64,000 bases of DNA from the NCBI GenBank assembly GCA_044238365.1, contig JBIIDM010000001.1, positions 8,769 through 72,768 of the forward strand. Reading direction: 5' to 3'. The stretch's first letter is position 1. Each line of letters begins with the position of its first letter. Below, piece by piece: positions 1 through 62,364 of this stretch. The translations under genes were made by a program, and so were the position numbers. Source of the stretch: Bdellovibrionota bacterium. GTDB taxonomy: Bacteria > Bdellovibrionota_C > UBA2361 > JBIIDM01. A model generated the notes under the pieces. The model made no database searches and was not told the origin of the DNA. It was given only the letters and a program-made list of their open reading frames with translations.

Positions 1-687
1 CATTGCAGTGGTCACCAAAGTCATATGAAACGGCGGCTCCGGGAGAGACTCCCGGTGAAATGCCAGCCACTCCCCAATTTCCGGCGGTACTGCTAAAAAT
101 GGACCGGTGTATTGTTGCGCAATTGCTGCCCATGCAGGCGGAAGGTCAGAACCGGGAACCCCTCCAACGCCTACTCCGACGCCCGTCGTAACGACGCCAG
201 GCGCGCCACCACCAGGTGCGCCACCGCCAGGCGCGCCACCGCCAGGCGCGCCACCACCAGGCGCGCCACCACCAGGCGCGCCACCACCAGCGACTATTCC
301 ATTTGGTCCAGCAGAACCAAGCACTATTCCAAACGCCTGCGTGGTTGCCGGAGGCTGCTCACTGGCGCCCTCTATGTAGTACTCCATCTGTAACCGCTCA
401 AGGCGAACTCCCTGGGTGGTAATGTTATTGCGAACAGTCAAACAACTCTGGGATCCGATTACAGCCCCCTCAAGATTATCTGCATTGCTAAGTGACACGA
501 CAACGCCACCTGAAAATACGTCGGGCTGACATACTTTAGATGCATCTACACTATTATAGGAAGTCATTGTAACCGACATACCCTGATCGTTCGTCGCCCC
601 GCCCCCGCCGCATCCCGCTGACGCGAGAAGCAAAGAAGCTAAAAGTGCCTGAGAACTGTATTGTTTCTTACTCGTTAAACTTTTCAT
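1..687 (-). CDS. Lipoprotein with a Gly-rich (GGAPG)n repeat, immediately downstream of pilQ. The 5' end is at 687 and the gene runs off the left edge of the window.
   Basis: I translated the minus strand myself. ATG at 687-685 sits 9 nt after a GGGGG Shine-Dalgarno-like motif that directly follows the pilQ stop. The N-terminus MKSLTSKKQYSSQALLASLLLASAGCGG is a classic lipoprotein signal with lipobox. The frame stays open with no stop all the way to position 1. It contains (GGAPG)x6 encoded by a 15-bp tandem repeat. The plus-strand ORF 107..379 (Pro-rich) has no signal or RBS and is rejected. Confidence 0.55.
   Translation of the reverse strand, partial: MKSLTSKKQYSSQALLASLLLASAGCGGGGATNDQGMSVTMTSYNSVDASKVCQPDVFSGGVVVSLSNADNLEGAVIGSQSCLTVRNNITTQGVRLERLQMEYYIEGASEQPPATTQAFGIVLGSAGPNGIVAGGGAPGGGAPGGGAPGGGAPGGGAPGGGAPGVVTTGVGVGVGGVPGSDLPPAWAAIAQQYTGPFLAVPPEIGEWLAFHRESLPEPPFHMTLVTTAM
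197..289. repeat. Tandem repeat, 6 units of 15 bp (ccaggcgcgccaccR), each containing a GGCGCGCC core.
   Basis: Direct reading gives units at 197, 212, 227, 242, 257 and 272. It encodes a Gly-Gly-Ala-Pro-Gly repeat in the minus-strand lipoprotein. Confidence 0.9.
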
Positions 688-4404: not shown

Positions 4405-5035
4405 TTTTGTCCTTCAGCTCTTTAACAGTGACATCCTTGCCAGTGGACTTTGGCTTGCCGGCGCCCTCAAAACTGACAGCTGCTTCTATTAGAAACTTCG
4501 AGACCTTGATGTCCTTAAAGTCCTCTTGTGTAATTTCCACGATGGTCACCTTTGGAAAAAAGTCAGACTGCCCCAAGTCCTCCACGAACATTGAAACCAG
4601 GTCATTCTCCAGTGCATAACCGCTTATTTTCATTCCACCATCTGACGATTCGGAAATTTCACTGAGCCATGACTTATCGGGAATCGCTAAATTTATGCTG
4701 TCAAGAACCTGGACCGGGCCCTTTTTGCTCTTCTTTAACTGAGCGATGATCTGTAGCCTCTTCTTCAACTCATCTCGTTGTTTTTCGAGATTTGCGACCG
4801 CGGAGGTGTCTTTCTCTAATAATGCCTTTCTCTTGTTTAGATCGTCTTCTTGCGCACTCAATTCACTAAGAGCCGATCCGTAAGAAAAAACCAGGAAGAC
4901 TACTAATGAGATTACGCCTAAAATAGACATACCGGACAGCAAAAGATAGAGTTTGAATTTCGCTCTGTCTTTTCCCTCTTCTTTGATTAAATTTATACGA
5001 ATCACTCGTATCCTCCAAAAAAAACTAGGTATCAA
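4397..5035 (-). CDS. pilN: Type IV pilus assembly protein PilN.
   Basis: 212 aa with the N-terminal motif RINLIKEE (PilN INLLP-like), a single TM segment and a coiled coil. It lies between pilM and pilO. Confidence 0.75.
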   Translation of the reverse strand: MIPSFFWRIRVIRINLIKEEGKDRAKFKLYLLLSGMSILGVISLVVFLVFSYGSALSELSAQEDDLNKRKALLEKDTSAVANLEKQRDELKKRLQIIAQLKKSKKGPVQVLDSINLAIPDKSWLSEISESSDGGMKISGYALENDLVSMFVEDLGQSDFFPKVTIVEITQEDFKDIKVSKFLIEAAVSFEGAGKPKSTGKDVTVKELKDKNG

Positions 5036-6486: not shown

Positions 6487-6569
6487 CTAACTTTGCAACC
6501 TAAGTTTCGGATAAGAAAAAAGGTAAGTGACTAAAGCAATTTTAGTCACTTACCTTTTTTCTTATCCGA
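6487..6569. repeat. Perfect 39-bp inverted repeat with a 5-nt loop (mini palindromic element). Its ends are related to the termini of the 180-bp MITE-like elements.
   Basis: The sequence aacctaagtttcggataagaaaaaaggtaagtgactaaa / gcaat / tttagtcacttaccttttttcttatccgaaacttaggtt was read directly. The arms resemble the element A/B terminus aacctgagttcgacgtaagaacaaaggtaa. Confidence 0.9.
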
Positions 6570-6688
6570 AACTTAGGTTGTCAGGTATTTTCCAGGTAGG
6601 GCGGCGTGTTAGAACACGTTTTGGAGCAGCTCAAATCTAAGGATGGCAATAATACAATTTTTTGGTGCTATATAGTGTCTACTCGATT

Positions 6689-8832: not shown

Positions 8833-9008
8833 AACCTGAGTTCAACGTAAGAACAAAGGTAACTGGTTGAAATTGCTTTACAAACGAGGTGAGAGTGATA
8901 TCAAAGCGCAGGCTGAAGCTTGTTACGTCGAGCATTTTATATCATGAGCAACGAAGTGGATGAAGTAATTTCATCCATTTACCTCAGTTCTTACGTCTAA
9001 CTCAGGTT
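8833..9008. mobile_element. MITE-like palindromic repeat element, copy A (~176 bp, non-coding).
   Basis: Terminal inverted repeats aacctgagttcaacgtaagaac ... gttcttacgtctaactcaggtt enclose an internal imperfect palindrome. It is about 90% identical to copy B at 18979-19160. It is intergenic, between the coiled-coil gene start and the VWA gene end. Confidence 0.8.
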
Positions 9009-12446: not shown

Positions 12447-14864
12447 CTATTCCCCGTAAAGATACCCCTCAACGTCCTGCTCCTCTCTACTCTGCGGAGC
12501 GTTCGGACGCGACCCTTTTAAAAAGTACATGGTAATGCCATCGGGATCCTCACGGCTTGTTTCCGATCCTGAATACCGGTTCACCAGATAGGGGGTTACA
12601 CCCTGTGGTACGGGAAAGGTAGAGACCTGCGCTACCTCATCACTTTGACTAACTAAAGTAATGCCATAATCCTCTGCCTCTCTTTCAGCCAATTGAGCTC
12701 GTTGCCTTCGTTCAACCTCTTCCTTTTCGGCTAAGTACCCTTTCATAATATCAAGCCATATAGGTGCCGCAATCTTTCCACCTGTCTCCTTCGACCCAAT
12801 ATTTCTACGCTTATCAAATCCCACCCATACCCCACAAACATACCGTGGTGTAAATCCAATAAACCAAGCATCCATCTGGTCATTTGTCGTTCCTGTTTTT
12901 CCGGCTACTGGGCGCCCAAGTTCTTTTAACTTCGTCGCCGTTCCCCTCTGAACAACACCAGTTAACATGTGAGTTAGGACAAAGGCCGAATTCTCATCAA
13001 CTACCCTCTTAGGCCCAACTCCGCCCGGTGCACCCATAGACGAAGAGTACAAAATAGCTCCGTCTCCTGATTCTATTGTCGTTACCACCTTAGTCGGTTG
13101 TAACACCCCTCCCCCTGCAAAGACACCATACGCCCGCACAAGCTCGAACAAGGTAACCTCGCTGGTTCCGAGGGCTAGCGAAAGATTCCTTCCCAATTCG
13201 CTTTGAACTCCCATGGCCCGAGCCAACTTAATTATCGGATCTACTCCAAAGTGAGAAATCAAATCGGCTACAATCAAGTTTCTCGATTGTTCGAGCCCTT
13301 TTTGAAGAGTTATTGGCCCGAGGTATTTTCCGTCATAGTTCTTTGGTTCCCAAATATCAGTGCCTACCCGGAAGGAGCGAGGAACATCCTGTACTATGGT
13401 GGCCGGCGTATAACCAAAATCTTTAATTGCAGCTAGGTACACAAATGATTTAAAAGCAGAACCAGGTTGACGCTTTGCCTGCGTAACACGATTGAAGCCA
13501 CCCTCAACGTAGCTATATCCACCCTGTAATGCTAAAATTGATCCATCGTTTGGATTTAATAGGAGTGCTGCCCCCTCAATTTCCGGTTTCTGGTCCAGAG
13601 AAAGATGAGAAACATCGCCGGAAACTTCGATGACATCGCCAACTCGAAGGGCACTTGTTACTGGGACCACCCGCTTATTACCGTCCGCATCAACCCGCTT
13701 GTTAGCCCATTCCGCATCACTTAAGTCGACGGTTCCAAACGTGTCCCCGTCGAGCTGAACGTTTGCCTTTTTGTGTGTCTGGTCCCACTCCGTCACTAAT
13801 GCGCAAACAGGCTCTGGATACTTCTGAGACTTAAGATCTCGATTTGCACTTACAAATTCACTAATAAATCTCTCGGCGCCGACCCCTGATGCGATTGGCC
13901 CCCGCCATCCAATTCGTTTATCAACACTCCGAAGTCCACGCCTCAGTGACTCCACTACGAGGCGATCCGCTTCCAAATCCAATGTTGTATGGACTTTCAG
14001 GCCATCGCGCTCTAGATCAAACTGCGGAAAGGATTTTTTGAACTGTTCACGAAATTCTCTCAGGAAATAGGGAGCCGCCATGAATCTTTTTTCGACCTCG
14101 GAGTGATACACTATCATCTCCTCCCTTAATGCTGCAGCCGACTCATCGGAGGAAATAAAACCCGCCTCCACCATACGTTGTAGTACGTACCTCCTTCTCC
14201 TCGTAGCGGCCTCTTTATCAACTAATGGCGAATATAAACTCGGAGCCTTAGGCAATCCAGCAAGCAGAGCGGCTTCGGCAAGGGTCAATGCATCAAGTTC
14301 CTTATGAAAGTACTCCTTAGCCGCTGCCTTAATTCCATAGGCGCCGTTTCCGAAGTAAATCTGGTTGAGATATATCTCAAAGATATCGTCTTTAGACAGA
14401 CTCTTTTCCAGTTGATAAGACAAAATAGCCTCTTTTAGCTTCCGTTCGACTGTCTTTTCGGGAGACAAAAGGAGATTCTTCACTACCTGTTGGGTAATAG
14501 TAGACCCCCCCTGTGCTACCTGCCCACTTTCAAGATTCTTTAAGGCGGCTCGAAGAATACTTAACGGATTAATTCCAGGATGGGAGTAAAAGGCTACATC
14601 CTCAGCAGCAAGCACCGCTTGTTTTACTTGCTGAGGAACTTGTTCAATCTTGATCGGGTACCTTCGTTCAACAAAAAACTCTCCAATTAATGCTCCATTA
14701 TTCGCATACACTGAACTAACCGAAGGTGGCTTGTAGTCGGAAATAGAGGAAATCTTGGGCATGTCACCAAACAACCGGACGAAGACTACGTAGCCGACGA
14801 CAACTACCCCAAAAATAAAAAGGAGGATAAGTAGAAGAATAGCCCGAAGAAAGAGTCTAACCAT
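12447..14864 (-). CDS. mrcA: Class A penicillin-binding protein 1A (transglycosylase/transpeptidase).
   Basis: 805 aa with an N-terminal TM segment. GT51 motifs are present (EDVAFYSHPGINPLSILRAALKNL ... GGSTITQQVVKN). A transpeptidase domain follows (SAFKSFVYLAA, KTGTTND). Confidence 0.9.
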   Translation of the reverse strand: MVRLFLRAILLLILLFIFGVVVVGYVVFVRLFGDMPKISSISDYKPPSVSSVYANNGALIGEFFVERRYPIKIEQVPQQVKQAVLAAEDVAFYSHPGINPLSILRAALKNLESGQVAQGGSTITQQVVKNLLLSPEKTVERKLKEAILSYQLEKSLSKDDIFEIYLNQIYFGNGAYGIKAAAKEYFHKELDALTLAEAALLAGLPKAPSLYSPLVDKEAATRRRRYVLQRMVEAGFISSDESAAALREEMIVYHSEVEKRFMAAPYFLREFREQFKKSFPQFDLERDGLKVHTTLDLEADRLVVESLRRGLRSVDKRIGWRGPIASGVGAERFISEFVSANRDLKSQKYPEPVCALVTEWDQTHKKANVQLDGDTFGTVDLSDAEWANKRVDADGNKRVVPVTSALRVGDVIEVSGDVSHLSLDQKPEIEGAALLLNPNDGSILALQGGYSYVEGGFNRVTQAKRQPGSAFKSFVYLAAIKDFGYTPATIVQDVPRSFRVGTDIWEPKNYDGKYLGPITLQKGLEQSRNLIVADLISHFGVDPIIKLARAMGVQSELGRNLSLALGTSEVTLFELVRAYGVFAGGGVLQPTKVVTTIESGDGAILYSSSMGAPGGVGPKRVVDENSAFVLTHMLTGVVQRGTATKLKELGRPVAGKTGTTNDQMDAWFIGFTPRYVCGVWVGFDKRRNIGSKETGGKIAAPIWLDIMKGYLAEKEEVERRQRAQLAEREAEDYGITLVSQSDEVAQVSTFPVPQGVTPYLVNRYSGSETSREDPDGITMYFLKGSRPNAPQSREEQDVEGYLYGE

Positions 14865-16296
14865 TTATTTTGGCAAATGCCTCTTTCTTTGGTATGAGGG
14901 AAGAGTACGTATCTTCTGATATCTTATATAGACCATTCCATCCGGCCCGCTTTAAAAGATGAAATCCACCATCAGCCTGGGTTTTGGAATCACCAACCTC
15001 GAATTCTGCTAAAGTACCACCGCTTTCGTACACCTTAATTGCCAAAATTGGCTTGAACTCAGCCTCTAGACTTAGGTCAGCAAGTCCTTCAACCTCAAGA
15101 TTGGATATGTTATGTAAGAATCCCCCAATAATCGCAGGCTCCCCTGGTTTGCCATCGACCAGCCAGGTCTTTTCTCCCTCGCCAGATGACTGTAAACCTA
15201 CAAACACACCATTTAAAAAGAACTCAGCTTTCTCGACATTTACTGAGTTAAAGGCAAAGACTCTTCGGTCAATCAGTTGGGACTCACCAACCAGAAAATC
15301 ACCGACCTTACTTCCACTTACCTCATAGACCCCCTTACCCACTGAAGGAATATTAACAAAAGTATTCCCATCTTTCGCACTGGTAATCCCCACTATAAAA
15401 GGTTCTTTTGCACCACTAAAAGAAAGTTTCACGTCCGGTATCTCAAGATCATAATTTTCGGTTTTAAGAACTCCGTCATCATGAAACGTTGAAACCTCCA
15501 GCGATCTAAGTTTTCTAGTAAGTTCAGACAGAGCTGCTTCGTCAACCCTTGCGGAATGCGACGACTCTAAACTCCACAGTCCATCACTCTTCACAAGACG
15601 AACCTGTGAGCTCGAGTCAACAGCGCCTTGGGGGTCCTTTCTGTTTATATCCAAAACCAGACTATTGAGATCATCTATATTTACATCGACCGGCGTTTTG
15701 TCTCGAATCTCATCGACACTCTTGTTAGAGGCAAAATATAGCGTGTCAGGAATCAGGTAGAGCTCCCCTGTGTCCCGAACACGGGCATACCGCTCTCCAA
15801 GATATTCCGATTTCTTTCCGAGTTCTATTATCGCTGTTCTCTTATCCCAGAAGGCGGAGACCGTTACATCTGGCTCCGTTAAACCATAGACTCCCCAATC
15901 GCCCTCGACATCCTCCTTTGGAATAGGGTCTCCCAATTCCAGGTCAGCAAGAGCATTCACCAGTCCATCCACAGAGCCGGCGTCAAGCATAGCTTCTTTG
16001 TTTCCCTCCAGACTCCATGATATCTGTGACTGATAGCTATTTTCCAAAGAATCTTTTCCAGGCTTGGATGTCACTTCAGGGGATGCATGACCGTTGACGA
16101 TCGTAAACCCACCTCCCCTTCGTTTGACCTCAACCCTCTCCAGTTTGGCGGGATCTATTCCTCCCAAAAAAATCTTACCCGTTCGCTCCTGTTCAATTCG
16201 GGGCATTTCAACCTGAAATACAAACAGGCTCAAAATTCCCACTAAGAATGCCAATAGAGCAATTTTCTTGAACGTCACAACACTCTCCAGTTTCAA
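14857..16296 (-). CDS. DUF4340-like secreted protein associated with the GldG-type ABC cluster.
   Basis: 479 aa with an N-terminal signal/TM segment. It sits directly downstream of the GldG-like gene and overlaps the PBP1A start by 8 nt. The functional call comes from the conserved context (ATPase, ABC-2 permease, GldG, DUF4340) and is an inference. Confidence 0.45.
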   Translation of the reverse strand: MKLESVVTFKKIALLAFLVGILSLFVFQVEMPRIEQERTGKIFLGGIDPAKLERVEVKRRGGGFTIVNGHASPEVTSKPGKDSLENSYQSQISWSLEGNKEAMLDAGSVDGLVNALADLELGDPIPKEDVEGDWGVYGLTEPDVTVSAFWDKRTAIIELGKKSEYLGERYARVRDTGELYLIPDTLYFASNKSVDEIRDKTPVDVNIDDLNSLVLDINRKDPQGAVDSSSQVRLVKSDGLWSLESSHSARVDEAALSELTRKLRSLEVSTFHDDGVLKTENYDLEIPDVKLSFSGAKEPFIVGITSAKDGNTFVNIPSVGKGVYEVSGSKVGDFLVGESQLIDRRVFAFNSVNVEKAEFFLNGVFVGLQSSGEGEKTWLVDGKPGEPAIIGGFLHNISNLEVEGLADLSLEAEFKPILAIKVYESGGTLAEFEVGDSKTQADGGFHLLKRAGWNGLYKISEDTYSSLIPKKEAFAKING

Positions 16297-16450: not shown

Positions 16451-18079
16451 TTACGCCAACCCCGCTCCAACTTCTCTGCGCTTCCACCATATGAACAAGC
16501 CCAAAATAAGTATCAATTCGGGCAACACAAAACTGGAAACCAATATGGTCTTAATATCGTCTGGTGTCATTGCGGTCTCTGAAGCAGAAAGACTTCGGGG
16601 TCTAATGGACAAACCGGTCTCCTGACCTGATACCCACCCAATTGAGTTCAAGGCAAGGTCTTTGTTAAACACATTACCTATGACCCCATTTTTGACCCAG
16701 TCAGAATCGCCGTATACGACTACCTTTGACTTTACAGCTGAATTTTCCGACGATTGTGCTGTATCGCCAGTTTCCCCTGAACTTACCGGCTTTTCATACG
16801 CAACCGCCAGTGTTACAGGTCCCTTAACGTCATCACCCGAGAATTCCACCGTAGGTTGTTCTGAATCGAAGATGGCAGCCAAATCCCTCTCAGACCAAGA
16901 ATCAGCACCCGTTTTAACCAATTCAACGTATTTCGCGTTGCTTGAAGAATCTGACTTAGGGGTGTCGATAGAAGAAGCGATATTAAATAACGTCAGATCC
17001 TGTCCAGCTCGTAAATCGCGCGTAATGGAATGTGCGCCGTAGGTTTTCGCAATAGGCTCAAGACCCAAGGCAGGACCAGCAAATAAACGCTGAACAGTAT
17101 CGATTACGACATCCTCTCGAACTTCAATCCCAAACCGTTTAGCTAAGTCACGAACCTGGATGGAGCCCCGTGGATCAACGAACATCAGCAGACCCCCACC
17201 TTTTTCTGCATAATTTGACAACATCTGAATTTCAGAATCCTGCAATTGCTTGGTTGGAGCAATCAAAAGCACAGAAGCGGCGTCATCTGGGATAGCTTGC
17301 AAAGTAGCTGTTATTAAGGATTCAACATTTAAATGCTCATTTTTTAAAGAATCCACCAAAGTCTTCAGTCCAGCAGGACTGGTATCATCAACCGACGGCT
17401 CCCCGTGCCCAGCAACAACGTAGACCTTCTTAGCGGCGCCGCCCTTCAATTTTAGTATTGCGCTGGTTACCGCCTGCTCCGTGATTTCATCAATCCGCGA
17501 GACGCCCTTTTCGTCTCCTTCGCCATACTCAATATAGAGTTGATTTCCCTGGCTCATTTGATACCGATCAATAAGATGCGGTTTAGTTCTGGGGTCTACT
17601 ATTTCGAAGGTAACCTTTGAACGGCTGGTCTCCTGATAAAGTCGTAGGAGGTCCCCGACCGGGCCCAACTTTTCACTCTCCGCCTGAAAGGCTATGAGTT
17701 TAACTGGCTTCGAAAGATTAGCCACCACATCACGACTCTGTGGCGCCAGACTGAATACACCATTTTTAGTAAGGTCAAAACGCTTATTATGACGAATACT
17801 CAACCAGTTGATCAGAACTAAGAATGCCAAAAAAAGAGCGGTATAAACGATTGCACCGGACCCAAATCGGAGACTCCTACCAGGAATAACCCCCCCCTTC
17901 TGGCCGAGGGACCTGGTACCTTCACCAACAAACCAGGCCAAAATAGACAACAAACCTACCACGATGTGCCCATACGTAACGACCGGTACAACTGAACCAA
18001 TCATCGTTAACAACGCAACCCCGACTACAAAGAGAACGAAGCCAAATATTCCTAAGAACTTCAAAAAACTCGTTTTCAT
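16451..18079 (-). CDS. GldG-like ABC-transport auxiliary component.
   Basis: 542 aa with N-terminal TM helices, a large periplasmic domain and a C-terminal TM segment (ELILILGLFIWW). It lies downstream of the ABC-2 permease and ABC ATPase genes. Confidence 0.55.
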   Translation of the reverse strand: MKTSFLKFLGIFGFVLFVVGVALLTMIGSVVPVVTYGHIVVGLLSILAWFVGEGTRSLGQKGGVIPGRSLRFGSGAIVYTALFLAFLVLINWLSIRHNKRFDLTKNGVFSLAPQSRDVVANLSKPVKLIAFQAESEKLGPVGDLLRLYQETSRSKVTFEIVDPRTKPHLIDRYQMSQGNQLYIEYGEGDEKGVSRIDEITEQAVTSAILKLKGGAAKKVYVVAGHGEPSVDDTSPAGLKTLVDSLKNEHLNVESLITATLQAIPDDAASVLLIAPTKQLQDSEIQMLSNYAEKGGGLLMFVDPRGSIQVRDLAKRFGIEVREDVVIDTVQRLFAGPALGLEPIAKTYGAHSITRDLRAGQDLTLFNIASSIDTPKSDSSSNAKYVELVKTGADSWSERDLAAIFDSEQPTVEFSGDDVKGPVTLAVAYEKPVSSGETGDTAQSSENSAVKSKVVVYGDSDWVKNGVIGNVFNKDLALNSIGWVSGQETGLSIRPRSLSASETAMTPDDIKTILVSSFVLPELILILGLFIWWKRREVGAGLA

Positions 18080-18174: not shown

Positions 18175-18951
18175 CTACCGGCACCTCTCGGCTTCGAGTA
18201 CACGCTGGGATAAAAATAATCCAAATGAGATCATTGAAATGAAGTAAACCAACGCTTCGGTCGTAATCACCCCTTTCATCATGTCCTTTACCTGAACTAT
18301 CGGAGATAGCTTCAACAGCACATCTCCTGCAACTCCACCAATGCTCTGAGCCGGAGCGTGAATAACATAAAGCAATAGCATCACCACCATACTGGAAACG
18401 CCAGCAACCACCTGATTACTTGCACATGATGAGACTGCAACCCCTATGCTCGCAAAGCTAAGGGCACATAAGGTCATACCAAGCAGACCGCATAACATGG
18501 GAAGAATTTCTGGCGCAGGGTTGCCGTAATAGAGAAGTAATGACGGATAAGTGAACGTACCCACCATCATAATTATCAGCAAAGACGCCACGCCAAGAAA
18601 CTTACCCATAACGATATCGAAGACAGACAGTGGTGAAGTAAGAAGCAACTCAAAAGTGCCCCTCTTTTTCTCTTCCGCAACAACTCTCATCGTTAGTAGT
18701 GGAACAAGGAATACAAGGACCACTATCATGGTTCCGTACATACGCTCGACGACCCACTCATTTAGATTAGGTGCCTCCCCTTGCATAAAAGGCATAGAAC
18801 GAAACCTCACCAAGCTTTCATTAAAATAAAGGACGAGTACAAAAAAGAAATAACCCGCCATTACCAGAAACCCAGTGATTGAAAAATACGCTAGGGGCGA
18901 GACAAAGAACGAAAAGACCTCTCTTCGAGCAATCGCAATTACGTTTTTCAT
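18175..18951 (-). CDS. ABC-2 family transporter permease (GldF-like).
   Basis: About 6 TM helices. The ORF track start at 19002 lies inside repeat element B, so I place the start at the internal Met (MKNVIAIARREVF) at 18951, just outside the element. Confidence 0.7.
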   Translation of the reverse strand: MKNVIAIARREVFSFFVSPLAYFSITGFLVMAGYFFFVLVLYFNESLVRFRSMPFMQGEAPNLNEWVVERMYGTMIVVLVFLVPLLTMRVVAEEKKRGTFELLLTSPLSVFDIVMGKFLGVASLLIIMMVGTFTYPSLLLYYGNPAPEILPMLCGLLGMTLCALSFASIGVAVSSCASNQVVAGVSSMVVMLLLYVIHAPAQSIGGVAGDVLLKLSPIVQVKDMMKGVITTEALVYFISMISFGLFLSQRVLEAERCR

Positions 18952-18978
18952 GATGTCAATATTCCCAAAAAAATTATT

Positions 18979-19160
18979 AGCCTGAGTTCGACGTAAGAAC
19001 AAAGGTAAATGGTTGAAATTGCTTTAGAAACGAGGCGTGCAGTGATATAAAAGCGCAGGCTGAGAAGCTTGCTACGTCGAGCATTTTATATCATGAGCAA
19101 CGAAGTGGATGAAGTAATTTTAACCATTTACCGCACAGTTCTTACGTCGAACTCAAGTTA
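18979..19160. mobile_element. MITE-like palindromic repeat element, copy B (~182 bp). It is inserted between the ABC ATPase and permease genes of one operon.
   Basis: The ends are cctgagttcgacgtaagaac ... gttcttacgtcgaactcaagtt. The internal sequence aligns to copy A over its full length. The element abuts the ATPase stop codon. Confidence 0.8.
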
Positions 19161-19934
19161 TTAGCTGGCTCCGTGCTTAGTCTCGCCACCATTCGAGGAT
19201 GGAATTGCGTCATCATTTTCGATGGGTTTATCGTAGCTAACACACTCAAGAAACAGTTGCTCAAGAGTTCGATCTCTTGTTATTTCTGCGAGTTTTCCCT
19301 CCCGTACAATCGTTCCCCTATTAATAATAACAACCTTGCTGCAGACCATGGTAACTTCTGGAAGGATATGGGTACTCAACAATAAAGTCTTTTCTTTGCC
19401 CAGGTCCTTGATCAGGTTTCTAATATCTATGATTTGACGCGGATCTAACCCACTCGTAGGCTCATCCAGAATCACCACTTGAGGATCGTGAACTATTGCC
19501 TGTGCAAGGCCAACCCTCTGCCGATACCCCTTGGAAAGCTGACCACAAAGGCGCCGAAACACATCCTTGAGAAAACAACGCTCGGCTGCTTTCTCAACAC
19601 TTTCCTTTAAATTTTTGCTCGCTACTCCTTTAATCCGTGCTACAAAATACAGGTACTCCTCCACTGACATCTCCTCATACAAAGGGGGATTTTCCGGAAG
19701 ATACCCGATTACCCGCCTTACCTGGTCAGCTTCTTTTTTTATGTCAAATCCGGCTATTTTTGCCGTTCCAGATGAAGGCGGCAAAAAAGTAGACAACATT
19801 CGAATGGTAGACGTCTTTCCGGCACCGTTTGGACCGAGAAACCCGACTATCTCACCTCGTTCAGCAGTAAAACTAACTTGATTTACGGCCTTATATTCTC
19901 CGTATGCTTTAGAAAGTTTATGTACCTCGATCAT
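19161..19934 (-). CDS. ABC transporter ATP-binding protein (GldA-like).
   Basis: Walker A GPNGAGKTS, ABC signature LSKGYRQRV and Walker B ILDEPTSGLD are all present. Confidence 0.9.
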   Translation of the reverse strand: MIEVHKLSKAYGEYKAVNQVSFTAERGEIVGFLGPNGAGKTSTIRMLSTFLPPSSGTAKIAGFDIKKEADQVRRVIGYLPENPPLYEEMSVEEYLYFVARIKGVASKNLKESVEKAAERCFLKDVFRRLCGQLSKGYRQRVGLAQAIVHDPQVVILDEPTSGLDPRQIIDIRNLIKDLGKEKTLLLSTHILPEVTMVCSKVVIINRGTIVREGKLAEITRDRTLEQLFLECVSYDKPIENDDAIPSSNGGETKHGAS

Positions 19935-22690: not shown

Positions 22691-22814
22691 CTCTTTGTTA
22701 CTCAAAAGAAGACTTATAGATTCCTAGTAACTCTACTCAGGTGCCCTCAACATAAATGCGCCCCAAAAGCGAGCTAACCAGCTGTAACTGCCAGTGATTT
22801 TTCAAGGTCGGGGA

Positions 22815-22912
22815 AAGTGATTGTTTTGTGAATGAGGCGTGGTACTCCAGGTCGCAGTGAACAAAATCAATCACTGGACGAAGAGATTGGGAAAATACCT
22901 GAGCAGTTACCT
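22815..22912. repeat. Degenerate or chimeric repeat fragment (copy D) sharing modules with element C.
   Basis: gaggcgtggtactccaggtcgcagtga (22834-22860) matches 36276-36303 in about 25 of 28 positions. It also shares gacgaagagat and a cctgag..cagttaccttt end-like segment. A local 14-bp inverted repeat flanks the shared module. Confidence 0.6.
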
Positions 22913-23785: not shown

Positions 23786-23949
23786 CTTAAAAAAATTTAA
23801 AACACAACGTTCAAACCCAGACGATACGCAAAAAGGGCCTTAAGTGACTCTGATTACCTCCTCTCTTCTCATATTATAAGTTGCTCGACCTAGCATGCTA
23901 TGCCGCGCTAATCTCATTAACGCCTGGTGTCTAAAGTAATTCTATCCCG

Positions 23950-23976
23950 TTACCTTTGTTCTTATCCGAAACTCAG
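23950..23976. repeat. Solo terminal-repeat remnant of the mini-palindrome subfamily.
   Basis: ttacctttgttcttatccgaaactcag closely matches the right arm of the 6487-6569 element (ttaccttttttcttatccgaaacttagg). No partner arm is visible nearby. Confidence 0.55.
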
Positions 23977-33270: not shown

Positions 33271-33326
33271 GTGTTATAAAGTCAGTCACTAATTCTGTTT
33301 TAACTAACCCGAATTTTTCGTCCTAA

Positions 33327-33491
33327 AAAGAGCAGCCTTGCGGTTTAAAGCGGCTCCATATATTTGAAATTACAAAGAATTTAGTGATTTTTGGTGACAA
33401 TCAAATATCACCGATACGATGAGATCCAAAATCGCTAAATTCTTTGTAATTTCAGCTAGATGGGCCACTTCAAACCGCAAGGCTGCTCTTT
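33327..33491. mobile_element. Second, unrelated palindromic repeat-like element (~165 bp).
   Basis: The ends are aaagagcagccttgcggtttaaag ... ccacttcaaaccgcaaggctgctcttt, a perfect 19-bp core inverted repeat. The internal sequence ttgaaattacaaagaatttagtgatttt pairs with aaaatcgctaaattctttgtaatttcag. It lies in the divergent promoter region between the membrane protein and the Wzc-like gene. Confidence 0.75.
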
Positions 33492-33863
33492 CTAGACTCA
33501 TGGAAGGAACCACCGCCAGTAGTTACCATACTTCGTGAATTCAGATTACAAGTAAAGAGGGTAGTTACGAAACGCTCAGAATGCATCGGACCCTGACTAC
33601 CGGTCTGGATCGAACAAACCACAGAACTCGCCGATTCCCGTCAAAAAAATTAGTTAAGAAACGCTGAAAAACGCACCGTCTTGCAACACTATCCGGTAAG
33701 CGAATTTCGTAACGAAATCCAGTGATAACACGCTGATATTAATATAACTTTCGAGCCTTAAAACATACTGTTCATTTTTTTAACCCCTTATTATTGGTTA
33801 AGTTACCATAATACGGTAAAAAGTAGAGGCGTCTATATTTAAACTTTTGAGGCCACAATCAAC

Positions 33864-36167: not shown

Positions 36168-36194
36168 GAAAATCCGGGCACCCCACCACCTGCT

Positions 36195-36350
36195 AACCTG
36201 AGTTCGACGTAAGAACTGCGGTTGCTAGGGTTCGCGAGGTTGGTTGATGTCGAGGCAAGAGGTACTTTCAGGAACGAGACGTGGTACTCCACGTCGCAGT
36301 GACGGAGAGTACCTCTTAACGAAGAGATCAGCCAACCTCGCGAACCCTAG
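36195..36350. repeat. Chimeric repeat element, copy C. It has an A/B-type left terminus plus a different palindromic module.
   Basis: It starts aacctgagttcgacgtaagaac (identical to the B terminus). It then continues with ctagggttcgcgaggttgg ... ccaacctcgcgaaccctag and an inner hairpin gaggtac..gacgtggtactccacgtcgcagtga..gtacctc. No right A/B terminus is present. It abuts the manC stop. Confidence 0.7.
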
Positions 36351-37790
36351 CTAAACGCGGCCGTAGACGTCAGTAAAACGGACGATATCATCCTCACCTA
36401 AGTAGCTTCCTGTCTGCACCTCAATCAGCTCGAGAGGAATCAAACCCGGATTCTTGAGATAGTGCTTGGTTCCTAAGGGGATATACGTCGAGCGGTCCTC
36501 ACCCAGCAAGATCTCCTCATCGCCCCGTCCCACTACCGCGGTGCCTTTTACAACGACCCAATGCTCAGCTCGATGGTGGTGCATCTGAATGGAGAGCTGC
36601 TGGCCCGGATGTACGGTGATTCTTTTTACCTGGAAGCGATCCTCTAGAGCTATCGTCTCATAGCTCCCCCAAGGTCGGTAGACCTTCTTATGAAACTGAT
36701 ATTCTTGGCGTCCCTGAGCCTGCAGGTGGGTTACTATCTTTTTTACCTCCTCCACTCGGTCCTTTGCAGCTATCAAAATCGCATCTGATGTCTCAACTAT
36801 CACTTGGTCGGATATGCCGAGTGCCGCAATCAAGCGTCCTTCTGAGTGGATAAAGCAACCGTGAACATCCTCTACAATTACATCACCGAGGGTTACATTG
36901 TCTGATGAATCTTTGGGTTGAATCTCCCACAGGCTTGACCACGATCCAACATCACTCCAACCAGCCTTGAGAGGAATAGTCACCGCTTTGCTCGTCTTTT
37001 CCATTACCGCGTAATCGATAGAATTCGAGGGGCTGGAATTAAAAGCATCCTCTTCAAGACGAACAAAATCCAGGTCGACCCTTCTATTTTCATAGGCAGC
37101 CTCACAAGCTTTAAGTATCGCTGGTTCAAATTGTCCAAGTTCAGATAAAAAGTTCGCTGCTCCGAATAAGAACATTCCACTATTCCAGAAGTAGTCCCCG
37201 GACTTAACGTACTCCTCCGCCACCTTTAGATTCGGCTTTTCAACAAATCGCGCTATTGGTAGCCAGGAGCCCTTTCCGGCTTCTCCCTTAACTACCTGAA
37301 TATACCCGTAACCCGTATGAGCAGCTTCCGGAACCACACCGAACGTTACCAGCTTACCGATATTAGCAGCTTCAATCCCAGACCTTACAGCCTGATGAAA
37401 AGCACCGACATCCTTGATCACATGATCAGCTGGAAGTATCAACAACAATGCCCCTGAGCCATATCTATGAATACTGTCGAGAGCGGCAACTGCTATCGCC
37501 GGTGCCGTATTCCTGGGTGAAGGCTCCAGGATAATGGTTCCTTTCCCTAAAAGACCCTTTTGCTGAAGTTCTGAAGCAACTATAAAACGATGCTCTGAAT
37601 TAGAGATTATTACCGGTGGTTGAATTTCTTCGCCAATTATATTGTTTCCCTTAACCAGCACCCGATCAATTGTTGCCCCTAAGAGGGAATCATCTCCGAT
37701 GAGTGACAAAAACTGCTTAGGAAACGCCGCCCGAGAAAGAGGCCATAAACGACTTCCCGATCCCCCGGACAAAATCACTGGAACAATCAT
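36351..37790 (-). CDS. manC: Mannose-1-phosphate guanylyltransferase / mannose-6-phosphate isomerase (bifunctional).
   Basis: The N-terminal segment is PVILSGGSGSRLWPLSR. A C-terminal cupin domain is present (HHRAEHWVVVKGTA). Confidence 0.85.
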   Translation of the reverse strand: MIVPVILSGGSGSRLWPLSRAAFPKQFLSLIGDDSLLGATIDRVLVKGNNIIGEEIQPPVIISNSEHRFIVASELQQKGLLGKGTIILEPSPRNTAPAIAVAALDSIHRYGSGALLLILPADHVIKDVGAFHQAVRSGIEAANIGKLVTFGVVPEAAHTGYGYIQVVKGEAGKGSWLPIARFVEKPNLKVAEEYVKSGDYFWNSGMFLFGAANFLSELGQFEPAILKACEAAYENRRVDLDFVRLEEDAFNSSPSNSIDYAVMEKTSKAVTIPLKAGWSDVGSWSSLWEIQPKDSSDNVTLGDVIVEDVHGCFIHSEGRLIAALGISDQVIVETSDAILIAAKDRVEEVKKIVTHLQAQGRQEYQFHKKVYRPWGSYETIALEDRFQVKRITVHPGQQLSIQMHHHRAEHWVVVKGTAVVGRGDEEILLGEDRSTYIPLGTKHYLKNPGLIPLELIEVQTGSYLGEDDIVRFTDVYGRV

Positions 37791-46557: not shown

Positions 46558-49032
<2,475 letters not shown>

Positions 49033-49137
49033 TCATTAGCGCCTTCTGTCACCAGAGTCCCGCCCAACTCCGGTCATTCCCAGCTACAGATATCTAAATC
49101 GAGCAAACCAACCTTGAGCAGCTCGGAAAGAACGCCA

Positions 49138-50199
49138 TTATAAAAACAAAACATCAAAACCTTCGTTCTGTATACTATCGGCCAGTTCCAGGTTGGTCGA
49201 GGTAACAAATACCTGCCATCCTGTAGCCCTTATTACGCGAAGTAAGGACCTTCTACGTTTTTCATCAAGTTCAGAATCAACATCATCAAGAATAAGAACA
49301 GGGGTCTGATGAAGGGAATTAGATAGGTTTTGGGCCGTTGCTACCGTGAGCGCCAATGTTGCAGCCCTTATTTGCCCCTGCGATCCGAACTCCTTAATAG
49401 GCCTCCCACCCATCAGGATCTCCATATCATCAAGGTGGATGCCGATTTGAGGACGTCTGAACCGAAGCTCTTTCTGCAACTGTCTCTCTAATGTGCTGAA
49501 AGCCTCCTGCTCAGATCGAACTACACCAAAGGTTGTCACGTATCTTATTTTGAGATCAACTCCCTCGCCGAATAGCTCTTGAAACACCACCGAAAAATTT
49601 GCATTAAGCTTATCGATTACTTCGTATCGACGCTGAATTATCTCCCAAGCTGATTTTGCAAGTAACTCGTTCCACGTTCTAATATCTGAAGGATTTGCGC
49701 CTTGTTTAAGCAGCGTTCTCTTATGGGCAAGTGTTCGACCATAAAAATTGTACAGCTCTATTAAAGGTGGATTAAGTTCAATAATATGTTTATCAACGAG
49801 CCCCCTCCGTACGACTGCCCCTCCCTTTACGACTCCCAGACTATCAGGGGAAAAACCTATCACCAGAAAACTGCCCACAAAATCCTTGATCTTGGTAATT
49901 AACTTACCATCCCGAGATATCTGCCGTCGCCCGGACTCGACCGTTACTGACAAATTAAAAGAACCAATATCATCGGAACAAAGACCCGAAACTATAGCTG
50001 CAGAGTTTTCATGTTTAATAAGTGCCCGAAGCTTTGAACGCTTCAATGAAACTCCTGTCCCTAACAGATAAATCGCCTCTACCAGATTCGTTTTTCCTCT
50101 ACCATTTTGAGATAGAATAAAATTCAGGCCCCCTCCAAATGAAAATGAGTTTTCCGCAAAGTTCCTAAAATTCTGTAAATACAATGATCGTATCTGCAA
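49138..50199 (-). CDS. recF: DNA replication and repair protein RecF.
   Basis: The Walker A is GQNGRGKTNLVEAIY. It sits in the conserved position between dnaN and gyrB. Confidence 0.9.
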   Translation of the reverse strand: MQIRSLYLQNFRNFAENSFSFGGGLNFILSQNGRGKTNLVEAIYLLGTGVSLKRSKLRALIKHENSAAIVSGLCSDDIGSFNLSVTVESGRRQISRDGKLITKIKDFVGSFLVIGFSPDSLGVVKGGAVVRRGLVDKHIIELNPPLIELYNFYGRTLAHKRTLLKQGANPSDIRTWNELLAKSAWEIIQRRYEVIDKLNANFSVVFQELFGEGVDLKIRYVTTFGVVRSEQEAFSTLERQLQKELRFRRPQIGIHLDDMEILMGGRPIKEFGSQGQIRAATLALTVATAQNLSNSLHQTPVLILDDVDSELDEKRRRSLLRVIRATGWQVFVTSTNLELADSIQNEGFDVLFL

Positions 50200-50214
50200 A
50201 ATCTTCCCCTTCGA

Positions 50215-51324
50215 TTACTCAATTCTTATCGGCATTACCATGGCTATTGAGTGTTCATCATCGCAAGGGTAGAATCTGGCTGGCTCATTTCCATTCAATA
50301 TTTCAATAACGATCTTTTCTGATATCAAAAACGAGCTAACAACATCTATAAGGAACCGAGCATTGAAACCAACACTGATTGGTTCATCGGTACCAACAAT
50401 GACCAACCGTTCTTCACTCTCTCCAAGCTCTGGACTACGGCTTGATATTCGCATGCTATCCTCTGCGATGTCGACCCTTACCCCCTGCCCCTGAGAGGCA
50501 AGGATAAGCGAAACACGGCGCAATGCGTCAGAGAACTCCTGGACCAGGATTTCAATCTTGACTCCTGAGGACTTGGGAAAAGCCCGAGCATAATCGGGAT
50601 AATCAACATCCATAAGACGAAGCGCAAACTTTGAGGAATCACTCTTAAAAACGACAAACCCCCCTCCGAATCCAACTTCAACCTCTTTAAGATGACCATC
50701 GTCAAAAACTCTACGTAGTTCAGAAAGGCCTCTTTTAGGGAAAAGCACCCTATGCCCAAGCCGCAAATCGGGGATATCTCTAGTTGAAAGCGCAAATCTA
50801 TGTCCGTCAGTGGCAACCATAGTTACCCTTCCATCGGAAGTCGGTTCAAAACAAATACCACTCAAATTAAACTTAGCCTCATCATGAGAAGCCGCATAGA
50901 TAGTTCTGTTGATCATTTCAGCAAAAATACGGCAATCGATCTTCCGATCTGTCACCAGGTCTAATCCCGGAATTTTTGGAAACTCAAGAGCGCCCAGCAC
51001 ATTCAATTTATATTTGGTGGTATTAGATTTAATTTCAAGCTTTTTTGCGTCCGAGAGTGAAAGATTCATCAAGCCTGTCGGCAGCTGGCGAACAACATCG
51101 GCAAACATCTTTCCGGGGACTGAAAATGTAGCTGATTGCTTTACTTCGGCAGGTACTTGCATAGAAACAGAAACTTCCAGATCCGTCCCCGACACTTCTA
51201 TTTGCCCATTATCTATCCGCACTAAAAAATAAGACATAATCACAAGAGGAGATTTTTTGCCTATAAATGCCTGGAGTGTATTCAAGGCCTTCGACAAATC
51301 ATCCTGCTGAACGACACACGACAT
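50215..51324 (-). CDS. dnaN: DNA polymerase III beta sliding clamp.
   Basis: 369 aa with a three-domain beta-clamp pattern. It lies directly downstream of dnaA. Confidence 0.9.
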   Translation of the reverse strand: MSCVVQQDDLSKALNTLQAFIGKKSPLVIMSYFLVRIDNGQIEVSGTDLEVSVSMQVPAEVKQSATFSVPGKMFADVVRQLPTGLMNLSLSDAKKLEIKSNTTKYKLNVLGALEFPKIPGLDLVTDRKIDCRIFAEMINRTIYAASHDEAKFNLSGICFEPTSDGRVTMVATDGHRFALSTRDIPDLRLGHRVLFPKRGLSELRRVFDDGHLKEVEVGFGGGFVVFKSDSSKFALRLMDVDYPDYARAFPKSSGVKIEILVQEFSDALRRVSLILASQGQGVRVDIAEDSMRISSRSPELGESEERLVIVGTDEPISVGFNARFLIDVVSSFLISEKIVIEILNGNEPARFYPCDDEHSIAMVMPIRIE

Positions 51325-51637: not shown

Positions 51638-53194
51638 CTAGCTGAAAAGTTTCCTTTCTATTTCGGAGACAAGTTCTCTCACAGAAGCCTCGTCGCTGAC
51701 CTTGTTTGCGACGACACTCGCGGCGTGGATTACGCTGGAGTGGTCTCGTCCGCCAAATTTTTCGCCAATCTCGGGGTAGGAAGCTGTTGTATGTTTCCTG
51801 CAGAGGTACATGGCTACATGTCGAGGAAACGAGAGATTTTTTGTCCGTCGTTTAGATATTATTTCTGACACTTTGATTGAGAAGTGTTGTGCTACCGCCT
51901 TCTTGATGTCCTCTATGTTGACTGATATTTTTTTCGGTTCTAGTAGGGGTTTGAGGGCCACTTGGGCCATTTGCAGCGTAATTGGAACCTTCTGCAGGCT
52001 GCTAACGGCATGCAATCTGGTTAGTGCTCCCTCTAATTCCCTAACGTTTGAGGAGATATTCTCGGCTATAAGGTATGCAACGTCCTCGGGAAGGTGAAAG
52101 TTCTCAAGGAGAGCTTTGCGTTTAAGAATTGCAGCTCTAGTCTCAAAATCTGGCGCTTGCAGATCCGCCGTTAAGCCCCAGGCAAAGCGGGTCTGAAGCC
52201 GCTCTTCAATTCCATCAATTTCGGAAGGAATTTTGTCAGAAGTCATTACGATCTGACGCTTGCAACTATAAAGGGCGTTAAACGTGTGGAAGAACTCTTC
52301 CTGGGTTCTTTCCTTTCCGCTTATGAACTGAATGTCGTCAATAAGGAGTATCTCAATGCTTCGTAGCCTTGTCTTGAATTCCTCCATTTTTGCGTTCCGA
52401 AGCGCCTGAATGAGCTCATTCGTAAAGGCCTCAGAAGAAATATAAAGCACTTTCGAGTTGGGGTTTCGGCTGAGAGCGGCATTTCCAATCGAGTGTAGAA
52501 GGTGTGTTTTGCCAAGCCCTACGCCGCCGTAGATAAATAGAGGGTTGTAGCTTTCACCTGGTTGTTCAGCGACTCTACAGGCAGCGGCGTTACAGAATTG
52601 ATTGTTGCTTCCAACTACAAAGCTTTGAAAGGTGTATTTGGGGTTTAGGTTGTTGAAAGTGTGGTGATCGTTTGGCGTACTGGTAGATTCGACGGGCTCG
52701 GCGGTGGGACTGGCGTGGCGTCGTTTTATAACGGTTCGAGATGATCCATCAAGTTGGCTTGCTAGTAGCGATTCATTTGGTGCCTTTGGTTCCTGAACAA
52801 CGTACGTGAGAATCAAGTTGGGAACGTTAAGCAATTCCTTAAGAAGCGTTTCTATTCGCCGGGAGTAGTTTCGCTCTATAAGTTGGCACTGAAGTTTTGT
52901 CGGCGCAGAGATTGTTAGGGCTGTTTCGTCAAATTCCCTTACGTCACCTTCTGTAAGTTCAACGATTAGCGGTTCGAAGTATGCGGAAAAGGCATGTTGA
53001 CCTACTTCGGTCTTAATCACCTCCAACATGTCATTCCATGCGTTTACTACTAATCCTTCGTGAATGGGTTCTCGGACAAAAGGTACGCCGTTTTGAAGTT
53101 GGTTGTAGGTGGTGTTCTCTCTAGTTGTGTTTTTGGTTGTGTCACTAGTAGTTGACTGGGTTGTTGATAAAAATAAATCTGGCGCAATATTCAT
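51638..53194 (-). CDS. dnaA: Chromosomal replication initiator DnaA.
   Basis: The AAA+ Walker A is GGVGLGKTHLLHSIG. The C-terminal DNA-binding domain carries GGRDHSSVIHA. The N-terminus has a T/N-rich low-complexity ~50-aa extension before domain I. Confidence 0.95.
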   Translation of the reverse strand: MNIAPDLFLSTTQSTTSDTTKNTTRENTTYNQLQNGVPFVREPIHEGLVVNAWNDMLEVIKTEVGQHAFSAYFEPLIVELTEGDVREFDETALTISAPTKLQCQLIERNYSRRIETLLKELLNVPNLILTYVVQEPKAPNESLLASQLDGSSRTVIKRRHASPTAEPVESTSTPNDHHTFNNLNPKYTFQSFVVGSNNQFCNAAACRVAEQPGESYNPLFIYGGVGLGKTHLLHSIGNAALSRNPNSKVLYISSEAFTNELIQALRNAKMEEFKTRLRSIEILLIDDIQFISGKERTQEEFFHTFNALYSCKRQIVMTSDKIPSEIDGIEERLQTRFAWGLTADLQAPDFETRAAILKRKALLENFHLPEDVAYLIAENISSNVRELEGALTRLHAVSSLQKVPITLQMAQVALKPLLEPKKISVNIEDIKKAVAQHFSIKVSEIISKRRTKNLSFPRHVAMYLCRKHTTASYPEIGEKFGGRDHSSVIHAASVVANKVSDEASVRELVSEIERKLFS

Positions 53195-62072: not shown

Positions 62073-62364
62073 TCAGTGATTCCATGATAGGGTAAGCGTC
62101 GGGCTTTTTTTTATCGCCGATGGTGACTACCCGGGTATTTTGATACTTACTTTGAAAAATCGGTCACAGCTAGTTGCAGCTGCCAAGGATTTCTACCAGG
62201 CCGAGTAGAACGATTGTTTTGTACATGAGCCCCTTTTGCAAATGAGCCTACATGAACTAAATCAATCGATTGACGAGGAGACTCGTGAATATCCTTAGAG
62301 CAGTGACGACCACTGAAACAATGATCAGTGAGAGTGAATACCTTAAATCAAGCTAATATGCCAA

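Follow-up and report, generated by a model that had tools for sequence, protein, structure and literature searches.

Palindromic repeats inside operons

Non-autonomous DNA transposons (MITEs) are already known inside operons, with Chunjie, Correia and ERIC sequences providing the closest described systems. Chunjie, from Geobacter uraniireducens Rf4, is 178–235 bp in length. As relayed in a later account, one copy is found in the pst operon, the structure of which is undisturbed (Chen et al. 2008, Genetics 179:2291; PMC2516098, via PMC10969869). Correia elements (CREE), of Neisseria, are hairpin-forming MITEs of ~100–200 bp. They are often co-transcribed, have terminal repeats cut by RNase III, and contain a conserved central IHF site (PMC10969869). 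ERIC/IRU sequences, of Enterobacteriaceae and Yersinia, are imperfect palindromes of ~127 bp. These occur in transcribed intergenic regions, including those within operons, and have effects on mRNA stability that depend on their orientation (PMC10969869).

Here we describe a short palindromic element, called copy B, between the ABC ATPase and ABC-2 permease genes of one operon. It was found in a 64-kb stretch of DNA, which we refer to as the window. The host is an uncultivated Bdellovibrionota/Oligoflexia-related bacterium. Copy B belongs to a new MITE family. Hence, an undescribed family, along with co-resident families of hairpin repeats, is added from an uncultivated Bdellovibrionota-related lineage.

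Comparison with the known systems reveals likenesses of form. Like Chunjie as described, copy B is short and non-coding, has terminal inverted repeats and direct repeats, and is one of multiple intergenic copies, with one inside an operon. The likeness is one of general form, and the sequence and host are unrelated. Furthermore, set against what is relayed of Chunjie, the insertion of copy B overlaps the upstream stop codon and its empty sites come from related uncultivated lineages, not from a paralogous operon. Correia elements are also hairpin-forming MITEs and offer the best functional analogy for a long terminal stem carried in mRNA. However, their termini differ, and it is for Correia elements, rather than for copy B, that promoters, cleavage by RNase III and binding of IHF have been demonstrated. 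ERIC sequences resemble copy B in being imperfect palindromes that can lie between the genes of an operon. In this case, the sequences are unrelated, and the described effect of ERIC is exerted via RNase E.

Filled and empty sites at the ATPase-permease junction

The operon is encoded by the minus strand and includes the ATPase gene (19161–19934; 257 aa; Pfam ABC_tran, E = 3.5e-31). This is followed by genes encoding the ABC-2 permease (18175–18951; 258 aa; Pfam ABC2_membrane_2/3), a GldG-like ABC_transp_aux protein (16451–18079; Pfam PF09822) and, last in the conserved four-gene block, a DUF4340 protein (14857–16296; Pfam PF14238). The same gene order is kept in every orthologous locus fetched. 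Note that the nearest named relatives of the permease, and of GyrA, are ~60–64% identical and derive from MAGs labelled Oligoflexia, Bdellovibrionales, Bdellovibrionota or Deltaproteobacteria.

A first-pass annotation, made from the DNA sequence, had proposed a MITE-like insert at positions 18979–19160, between the ATPase and permease genes. The insert is real and these limits are correct to within 2–3 nt. By repeat search, BLAST and a family profile (nhmmer, E = 4.6e-52; the alignment of copy B took in 17 other family copies), the element proper, CCTGAG...CTCAAG, occupies 177 nt of the plus strand (18981–19157). What we call the ‘top’ orientation of the family corresponds to the plus strand of the window for copy B, and is antisense to the operon. 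The element ends in two 20-bp inverted repeats, CCTGAGTTCGACGTAAGAAC (18981–19000) and GTTCTTACGTCGAACTCAAG (19138–19157), both located on the plus strand by the repeat search and invariant across the family. They are complementary at 19 of 20 positions. A second pair of arms (19004–19024 with 19112–19132) lies immediately inside, with more pairs further in, and the entire near-palindromic element forms a single long imperfect hairpin. In the RNAalifold consensus, the inner hairpin (19004–19132, plus strand) consists of a long stem, conserved central loops (CGAGGCGTG, 19031–19039, and GAGCAACGAAG, 19095–19105, plus strand) and an apical stem-loop.

The 7-bp sequence TTATTAG is found on both sides of the element. 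The left copy (18974–18980) is identical to the right copy (19158–19164), which takes in the ATPase stop codon (19161–19163; minus-strand TAA) as well as the last base of the Ser codon before it. The plus strand from 18974 to 19164 is, in order, TTATTAG, CCTGAGTTCGACGTAAGAAC ... GTTCTTACGTCGAACTCAAG, TTATTAG. The intergenic gap between the ATPase stop and the permease start (18952–19160) measures 209 nt and, as had been suggested, is taken up by the insert: only 22 nt, preceding the permease ATG, remain outside the element and its duplication. For annotation purposes, the insertion explains why an operon that is tightly packed elsewhere should contain a gap of 209 nt.

The position of the permease start codon matters for this interpretation, and two candidates were available. 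The first-pass annotation preferred ATG 18951 to TTG 19002, which lies inside the element. In all, 1407 permease homologues were found. Among the 120 listed, nearly all are 256–263 aa in length, with a start that corresponds to ATG 18951. Homologues of 256–260 aa match the 258-aa permease product over 100% of its length. Judged by these comparisons, the true start is ATG 18951, not TTG 19002, as the earlier preference would have it. Because the homologues start at ATG 18951, we regard the TTG 19002 start as an artefact of a reading frame that stays open from the element onwards. It would add 17 codons (LFLRRTQANNFFGNIDI), translated from spacer and element sequence. This spurious extension, absent in homologues, is the sole open frame in copy B, which is otherwise without coding capacity. 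Hence, since the permease starts at 18951, no part of copy B is coding, and the opposing case, of a permease that starts at 19002 and an element that is partly coding, does not hold. Note that the public gene call P0244 is exactly the 275-aa product expected from TTG 19002. This call is an annotation artefact, and the wrong start codon, already in the public record, can now be corrected. By exact match, neither the 258-aa nor the 275-aa form of the window permease is listed in the gene-position index.

Both flanking genes, the ATPase stop codon and the permease initiation region are intact after insertion. The ATPase has the same length as its orthologue and an unchanged C-terminus (...GAS*). 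Similarly, the permease has the length and ends of its orthologues, with a dN/dS of ~0.02 against locus L001, a comparison in which synonymous sites are saturated. The residual native spacer (18952–18973, minus strand) contains the translation-initiation region of the permease (GGGAA...GACATC) and lies 3' of the insert in the mRNA. It is conserved in relatives with an empty site (TTTTGGGAAAAATGACATC-ATG and similar). The conserved stretch TTTTGGGRA...ATGACATC, before the permease ATG, is kept 3' of the insert and outside the predicted hairpin.

Logically, if copy B is an insertion, related genomes should include loci without it, and such a comparison of orthologous loci had been suggested in the first-pass annotation. 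Junctions were taken from members of the permease 90% identity cluster (13 sequences) and from more distant orthologues. Seven related lineages have an element-free junction of between 24 and 57 nt, and none of the empty orthologous spacers has similarity to the repeat. The spacers, in order of permease nucleotide identity to the window, are 24 nt (L040 and L041; 87.8%), 57 nt (L047; 85.2%), 42 nt (L044–L046; 83.3–83.4%), 57 nt (L042; 82.2%), 25 nt (L001; 79.5%) and, for the more distantly related loci, 53 nt (L002; 73.0%) and 34 nt (L003; 71.9%).

The closest empty site, of L040 and L041 (sequence AGCTAATAATATTTTGGG), reads ...GCCAGCTAATAATATTTTGGG... and contains the 7-bp target once. The filled site of the window reads ...GCCAGCTAATAA, then the element, then CTAATAATTTTTTTGGG..., with the target present twice. 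Followed up to the permease start, the empty site is ...GGAGCCAGCTAA / TAATATTTTGGGAAAAATGACATC / ATG and the filled site is ...GGAGCCAGCTAATAA, 177 nt, CTAATAATTTTTTTGGGAATATTGACATC / ATG. From these sequences it follows that CTAATAA is single in the empty allele and flanks the element twice in the filled allele. Deleting the element, together with one duplication (184 nt in all), gives back a spacer of 25 nt. We conclude that the target CTAATAA, overlapping the ATPase stop codon, was duplicated at this locus. The pair of filled and empty sites is unusually clean, with a target that overlaps a stop codon. It also provides a natural test case: one operon with, and without, an 85-bp hairpin between ATPase and permease genes.

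These data bear on whether anything was inserted at all, since the segment of 180 nt could instead be native to the operon, as an ancestral leader or attenuator that regulates the permease gene. Its position, exactly between two cistrons, and its very strong fold would suit such a role. Distant orthologues (L005–L007) also have a long spacer, of 177 nt, at the same junction. However, the L005 spacer has a sequence that is unrelated and unrepeated, and its fold is unremarkable (z = -0.25); for want of repetition and structure, we also rejected the L005–L007 spacers as a second insertion at the same site. Furthermore, a native leader is at odds with the element-free junctions of seven related lineages, the nearest of which has an unduplicated target, and with the occurrence of the same sequence at dozens of unrelated loci, each with its own duplication. 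We consider a native leader barely conceivable.

Two other assemblies inform on the age of the insertion. Locus L043, from another sample and with a permease 99.9% identical at the nucleotide level, starts TACCTTTGTTCTTACGTCGAACTCAGGCTAATAATTTTTTGGG..., and so has the same end of the element in the same position. Likewise, the first bases of the contig with P0244 lie within the element at the ATPase-permease junction. Since L043 and the P0244 contig share the insertion, and L040 is empty, the insertion postdates the split from the L040 lineage. By sequence comparison, it is common to very close strains in three data sets. The filled allele is represented in the source of the window and in samples SRR33769837 and ERZ21982217, and the empty allele in 3300043099 and 3300045065. 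Most copies of the main subfamily are from one metagenome, and locus L044, also from that metagenome, has no insert at the junction. That contigs of two other samples break inside the element could point to an assembly artefact, with a repeat collapsed or mis-joined into the operon. Against this, the independent assemblies join the same element end to the same spacer and permease gene, while in the window the sequence is continuous across the element, the duplication is perfect and the stop codon is intact. Breaks at repeats are, in any event, expected of a real multi-copy element. An artefact is therefore extremely improbable, and insertion of the element accounts for the breaks seen here in assemblies of this lineage.

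The repeat family and its proposed mobilisation

Between three and five copies of the family are found in the 64-kb window. Copy A (8835–9006, plus strand) is 90% identical to copy B and in the same orientation. Its hairpin is more decayed, and its duplication is degenerate (TTAATAA / TTATAAA). Copy C (23826–23976, minus strand) is in the opposite orientation and is degenerate but near full-length (nhmmer, E = 3.5e-17, model positions 2–161). A short relative of 85 nt (6496–6580) is a perfect 40-bp palindrome with variant termini (CCTAAGTTTCGGATAAGAA). Finally, a solo terminal repeat of the A/B type (36194–36218, plus strand) abuts a different hairpin (36219–36350). The window itself is chromosomal, with the dnaA-dnaN-recF-gyrB origin region and a GC-skew switch near 52 kb.

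Beyond the window, the terminal-repeat pattern matches 30 metagenome contigs, almost all of two samples. Taking window and metagenome loci together, BLAST and the nhmmer family profile identify 19 near full-length copies and ~11 copies at contig ends, plus mini versions. One mini version (L019) consists of the two terminal repeats alone, is 51 nt long, and has a perfect 7-bp duplication. Many metagenome contigs terminate within the element, as expected of a multi-copy repeat. The copies neighbour unrelated housekeeping genes, encoding a SpoU methylase, ribosomal protein S14, Dus, an epimerase and carbonic anhydrase, and none of the copies is inside an open frame of at least 100 codons. A further case of presence and absence is found in L003 (84% permease identity), where a degenerate family member follows the PBP1A gene; the window is empty at that position. 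Viral contigs, searched for the family, gave no match. In a scan of a genome collection with the terminal-repeat pattern there was, among the matches listed, one chance match to non-repeat sequence of a Flavisolibacter MAG.

We compared the 7 nt either side of 15 complete copies. In 14 of these, at least 5 of the 7 flanking positions match, compared to 22% of mismatched pairs of left and right flanks. The mean number of matches was 5.7, versus 3.5 for the control. The matches are concentrated at positions 2–6, each shared in 13–15 of the 15 copies, with positions 1 and 7 shared in about half. Of the 15 copies, 13 have A next to CCTGAG and 14 have T next to CTCAGG. Hence, nearly all copies have AT-rich duplications of 5–7 bp, with perfect 7-bp repeats in three (copy B, L019 and L035). 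Most simply, the element would have A...T ends and make an AT-rich duplication of 5 bp, though the three perfect 7-bp copies do not fit this cleanly. Under either geometry, the flanking duplications are transposition footprints. Correia elements, for their part, duplicate TA.

Copy B combines small size and lack of coding sequence with terminal inverted repeats, a target-site duplication, dispersed copies, and presence or absence alongside an intact empty site. These are the hallmarks of a MITE. We conclude that copy B is very probably a non-autonomous DNA transposon, inserted in the short spacer, of 24–25 nt, between two cistrons of an ABC transporter operon of the gliding type (gldA/F/G-like).

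A different route of mobilisation can be envisaged, in which the palindrome is REP/BIME-like, or derived from IS200/IS605, and was moved via single-stranded DNA by an HUH (Y1) transposase, rather than being a DDE-type MITE. That the whole element is one long hairpin, and possibly folds asymmetrically with respect to strand, would be in keeping with this. So would the co-resident h22 family of hairpins, which has no visible duplication. However, target-site duplications surround nearly all copies of the copy B family, and HUH-mobilised elements are not known to make these. The ends are also symmetric 20-bp inverted repeats, the 51-nt version with only these repeats still duplicated its target, and there is no RAYT or TnpA(Y1) gene in the window. 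Mobilisation by an HUH enzyme thus appears very improbable.

For a DDE-type MITE, a transposase encoded elsewhere would move the element in trans, by binding the invariant ends of ~20 bp. The window, the fetched metagenome loci and viral contigs yielded neither a cognate transposase nor an autonomous element with the same ends. Solo or partial ends (L015, L026 and L027) were inspected for an autonomous partner alongside; the ORFs there are housekeeping genes, not transposases.

The element ends were compared with those of ISEcp1, using inverted repeats taken from a plasmid copy. The end CCTGAGTTCGACGT matches the ISEcp1 right inverted repeat, CCTAAATTCCACGT, at 11 of 14 positions and the left repeat at 10 of 14, for one member that was chosen post hoc. 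In both cases the termini begin CC and the 14-bp repeats follow CCTNNNTTCNACGT. ISEcp1, of the IS1380 family, makes 5-bp duplications (PMC2887853), and this resembles the 5-bp core of the copy B family. The systems differ in that an extra A...T is found between the CC/GG ends of the copy B family and its 5-bp core, and some copies have 7-bp duplications. On sequence grounds, we treat an IS1380-type link of the ends as a lead, not as membership. Tn3-family ends, by comparison, are 38 bp in length and begin GGGG. TIMEs, which are Tn3-derived inverted-repeat miniature elements, are described as MITEs of bacteria that are moved in trans and duplicate 5 bp of their target (PMC4133298), and in this respect resemble copy B as interpreted here. 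Membership of the TIMEs is unlikely because the ends of the copy B family begin CCTGAG.

The hairpin and its possible roles

The first-pass annotation regarded the insert as prone to hairpin formation, and proposed that its fold energy be compared with shuffled controls. This expectation was borne out. The operon-sense (minus) strand of copy B folds with an energy of -68 kcal/mol, compared to -33.7 (sd 3.4) for dinucleotide shuffles (z = -10.2), and none of 200 shuffles folded as well. The predicted hairpin is self-contained in a 331-nt mRNA context, with the base of the stem 29 nt upstream of the permease AUG.

Scans revealed no terminator-like sites in copy B in the sense of the operon (minus strand), and no sigma-70-like promoters on either strand between 18000 and 20400. 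The combination of hairpin and downstream U7 run was considered as an intrinsic terminator or attenuator, and rejected: the U7 run begins 7 nt past the base of the stem, with the duplicated CUAAUAA in between, and the scan was negative. No IHF-like site was recognised in copy B.

The first-pass annotation had named attenuation, cleavage by RNase III and a decoupled ATPase:permease stoichiometry as possible effects of the insert. In the proposed mechanism, the operon would still be transcribed as one mRNA, carrying an imperfect hairpin of ~85 bp with its base 29 nt before the permease AUG. In the folded model, the hairpin would be sufficiently distant from this AUG not to occlude initiation. 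By analogy with Correia elements, and with ERIC elements and their effect on mRNA stability, the 20-bp terminal stem is a plausible candidate substrate for RNase III, which may cut the long terminal stem in the mRNA. Such a cut would split the ATPase and permease segments of the transcript and could shift the ATPase:permease ratio. By the analogy with Correia elements, cleavage would be the most likely effect of the insertion at the RNA level. For the operon as a whole, the most likely state is that the insertion is tolerated and nearly neutral, with the element as a passenger. It would be tolerated because the element landed in one of only a few suitable bases, just after the stop codon in a 24-nt spacer, sparing both the reading frame and the initiation region. 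The biology of the insertion would then be ordinary, unless the hairpin contains a functional module.

The pattern of conservation within the hairpin was analysed across 18 copies, using the RNAalifold consensus and pair counts. Terminal helices 1 and 2 show no covariation because their sequence is conserved. Conversely, compensatory double changes are found at 10 of 27 pairs in inner helix 3, and at 14 of 62 pairs overall. Across the alignment, 94.6% of cells are paired, compared to 31–40% with slid partners, and none of 500 shuffles reached the covariation score. In the central loops, the motifs CGAGG and GAGCAACGA vary little or not at all between subfamilies. Changes of this kind, together with conserved loops, exceed the needs of a purely selfish, decaying repeat, and the hairpin may itself have a function.

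The two strands of the element also differ in folding. In every member the top strand folds better than the bottom (-90 versus -68 kcal/mol for copy B), and the same is true of the two subfamily consensus sequences (-104 versus -84 and -103 versus -85). The eight wobble positions common to at least three copies are all G-U on the top strand. We do not rely on the overall strand asymmetry of wobble pairs (92 G-U versus 19 A-C cells) since this count is biased by structure prediction. An arm-versus-arm wobble count, independent of predicted structure, gives 4:2 and 6:3 for top versus bottom, which is not significant.

Taken at face value, such observations could mean that the hairpin is a functional single-stranded module, either a structured RNA or an ssDNA hairpin recognised by the transposition machinery or a host protein, that is mobile by chance and has a selected inner stem and loops. 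At this locus, the copy in the operon would then serve as a regulatory RNA element or as a gene for an antisense small RNA. Pairing maintained by double changes, nearly invariant loops and better folding of the top strand in all members would fit, as would the related core found at corresponding positions in two further families of hairpin repeats. Weighing against this, almost all of the double changes stem from one split between two subfamilies, so the inner-stem signal reflects few independent events. Furthermore, both arms of a palindrome can be converted together by template switching, with no need for selection. At this locus, the strand that folds better is antisense to the operon and, with respect to neighbouring genes, copies show no significant bias in orientation (~10 place the bottom strand, and 4 the top strand, in mRNA, according to crude ORF calls). 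The lack of sigma-70-like promoters by scan, and of significant asymmetry in structure-independent wobble counts, also disfavours a functional module. Searches with Rfam 15 covariance models found no match at the gathering score in the window, with only noise at E up to 10, and copy B and the two other hairpins (of the h22 and h36 families) gave no match at gathering or permissive thresholds. In an informal comparison by eye, the conserved core does not fit the motifs of hammerhead, twister, pistol or hairpin ribozymes. On balance, we consider a selected module of this sort unlikely, and prefer the MITE interpretation, with copy B as a tolerated passenger.

The two other hairpin families, from the same genome, share with copy B a short core (YGAGRCGTG, GCAGTGA and ACGAAGWGR), which is found at corresponding positions of the same strand. 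A broader proposal is that the A/B, h22 and h36 families carry a common functional internal-loop module (CGAGGCG... / ...AACGAAG) on covarying stems, spread by different vehicles, with strand-specific effects on transcripts. The module could, for example, be a single-stranded RNA or DNA site for binding or processing by a host or transposon protein. We think this quite unlikely. If true, strand-specific effects would be expected for transcripts containing the module, that of the ABC operon included. Copies of the h22 family are located at 22784–22910 and 62174–62307 in the window, and in L010 and L027. The h36 hairpin (36219–36350) directly adjoins the solo end of the A/B type.

The ATPase/permease junction in distant orthologues

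At three metagenome loci encoding permease orthologues (L005, L006, and L007) the ATPase and permease genes are separated by a 177-nt spacer (L005 positions 2222-2398). The sequence is unrelated to copy B, the MITE between the corresponding genes of the window, and permease identity is 73%. No repeats of the L005 spacer were detected among the fetched loci and its structure is not unusual (z = -0.25). Note that a public gene call for the permease, P0244, describes a 275 aa product, its extra N-terminal stretch lying at window 18952-19002, with a TTG start inside copy B. This call is a propagated mis-annotation.

A core common to three hairpin families

Copy B belongs to the A/B-type MITE family. 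This shares a core of three motifs, YGAGRCGTG, GCAGTGA, and ACGAAGWGR, with two other hairpin repeat families, h22 and h36; motif order and strand are identical. The core is found at window positions 19031-19045 and 19100-19108 (copy B), 22833-22886 (h22), and 36275-36327 (h36). Across the window, ACGAAG[AT]G[AG] occurs five times, always on the plus strand, and four of these matches are within hairpins of the three families.

The second family, h22, is about 127 nt long with ends GTAACTGCC...GCAGTTAC. Copies are present at window positions 22784-22910 and 62174-62307, and at two metagenome loci (L010, 166-293, and L027, about 4812-4937). No target duplication is visible. Identity is 92% for the L010 copy, whose apical stem has a compensatory change. 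The diverged h22 copy adjoins a large type IIG restriction-modification gene (Eco57I/MmeI-like, 1191 aa, window 58497-62072).

A solo A/B-type terminal repeat (window 36194-36218) is fused to a different hairpin of 133 nt, whose plus strand folds at -106 kcal/mol; together the two span 36194-36350. The right arm of this hairpin overlaps the stop codon of a mannose-1-phosphate guanylyltransferase-like gene (36351..37790).

Other palindromes, repeats, and the replication origin region

An 85-nt element (window 6496-6580) has variant termini, CCTAAGTTTCGGATAAGAA, and is related to copy C, a degenerate A/B-type member, and to a copy at metagenome locus L003. Its 40-bp stem (-62.5 kcal/mol) is perfectly complementary, suggesting that it formed very recently or that its arms were corrected. 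A further long, unrelated hairpin of about 173 nt (window 33323-33495) comprises two nested arm pairs, 89-91% complementary, and is intergenic, ahead of a Wzz/tyrosine-kinase-like gene. At the start of the window (165-305), seven 15-nt CCAGGCGCGCCACCA-like units form a tandem array. These probably code, on the minus strand, for a Gly/Ala/Pro-rich repeat in a gene running off the window.

The chromosomal replication-origin gene cluster, dnaA, dnaN, recF, and gyrB, occupies window positions 46558-53194, with all genes, including dnaA (53194..51638), on the minus strand. Near 52 kb (region about 51330-53600), GC skew changes from about -0.15 to +0.2. The dnaA/dnaN intergenic space holds an AT-rich palindrome (51330-51377).
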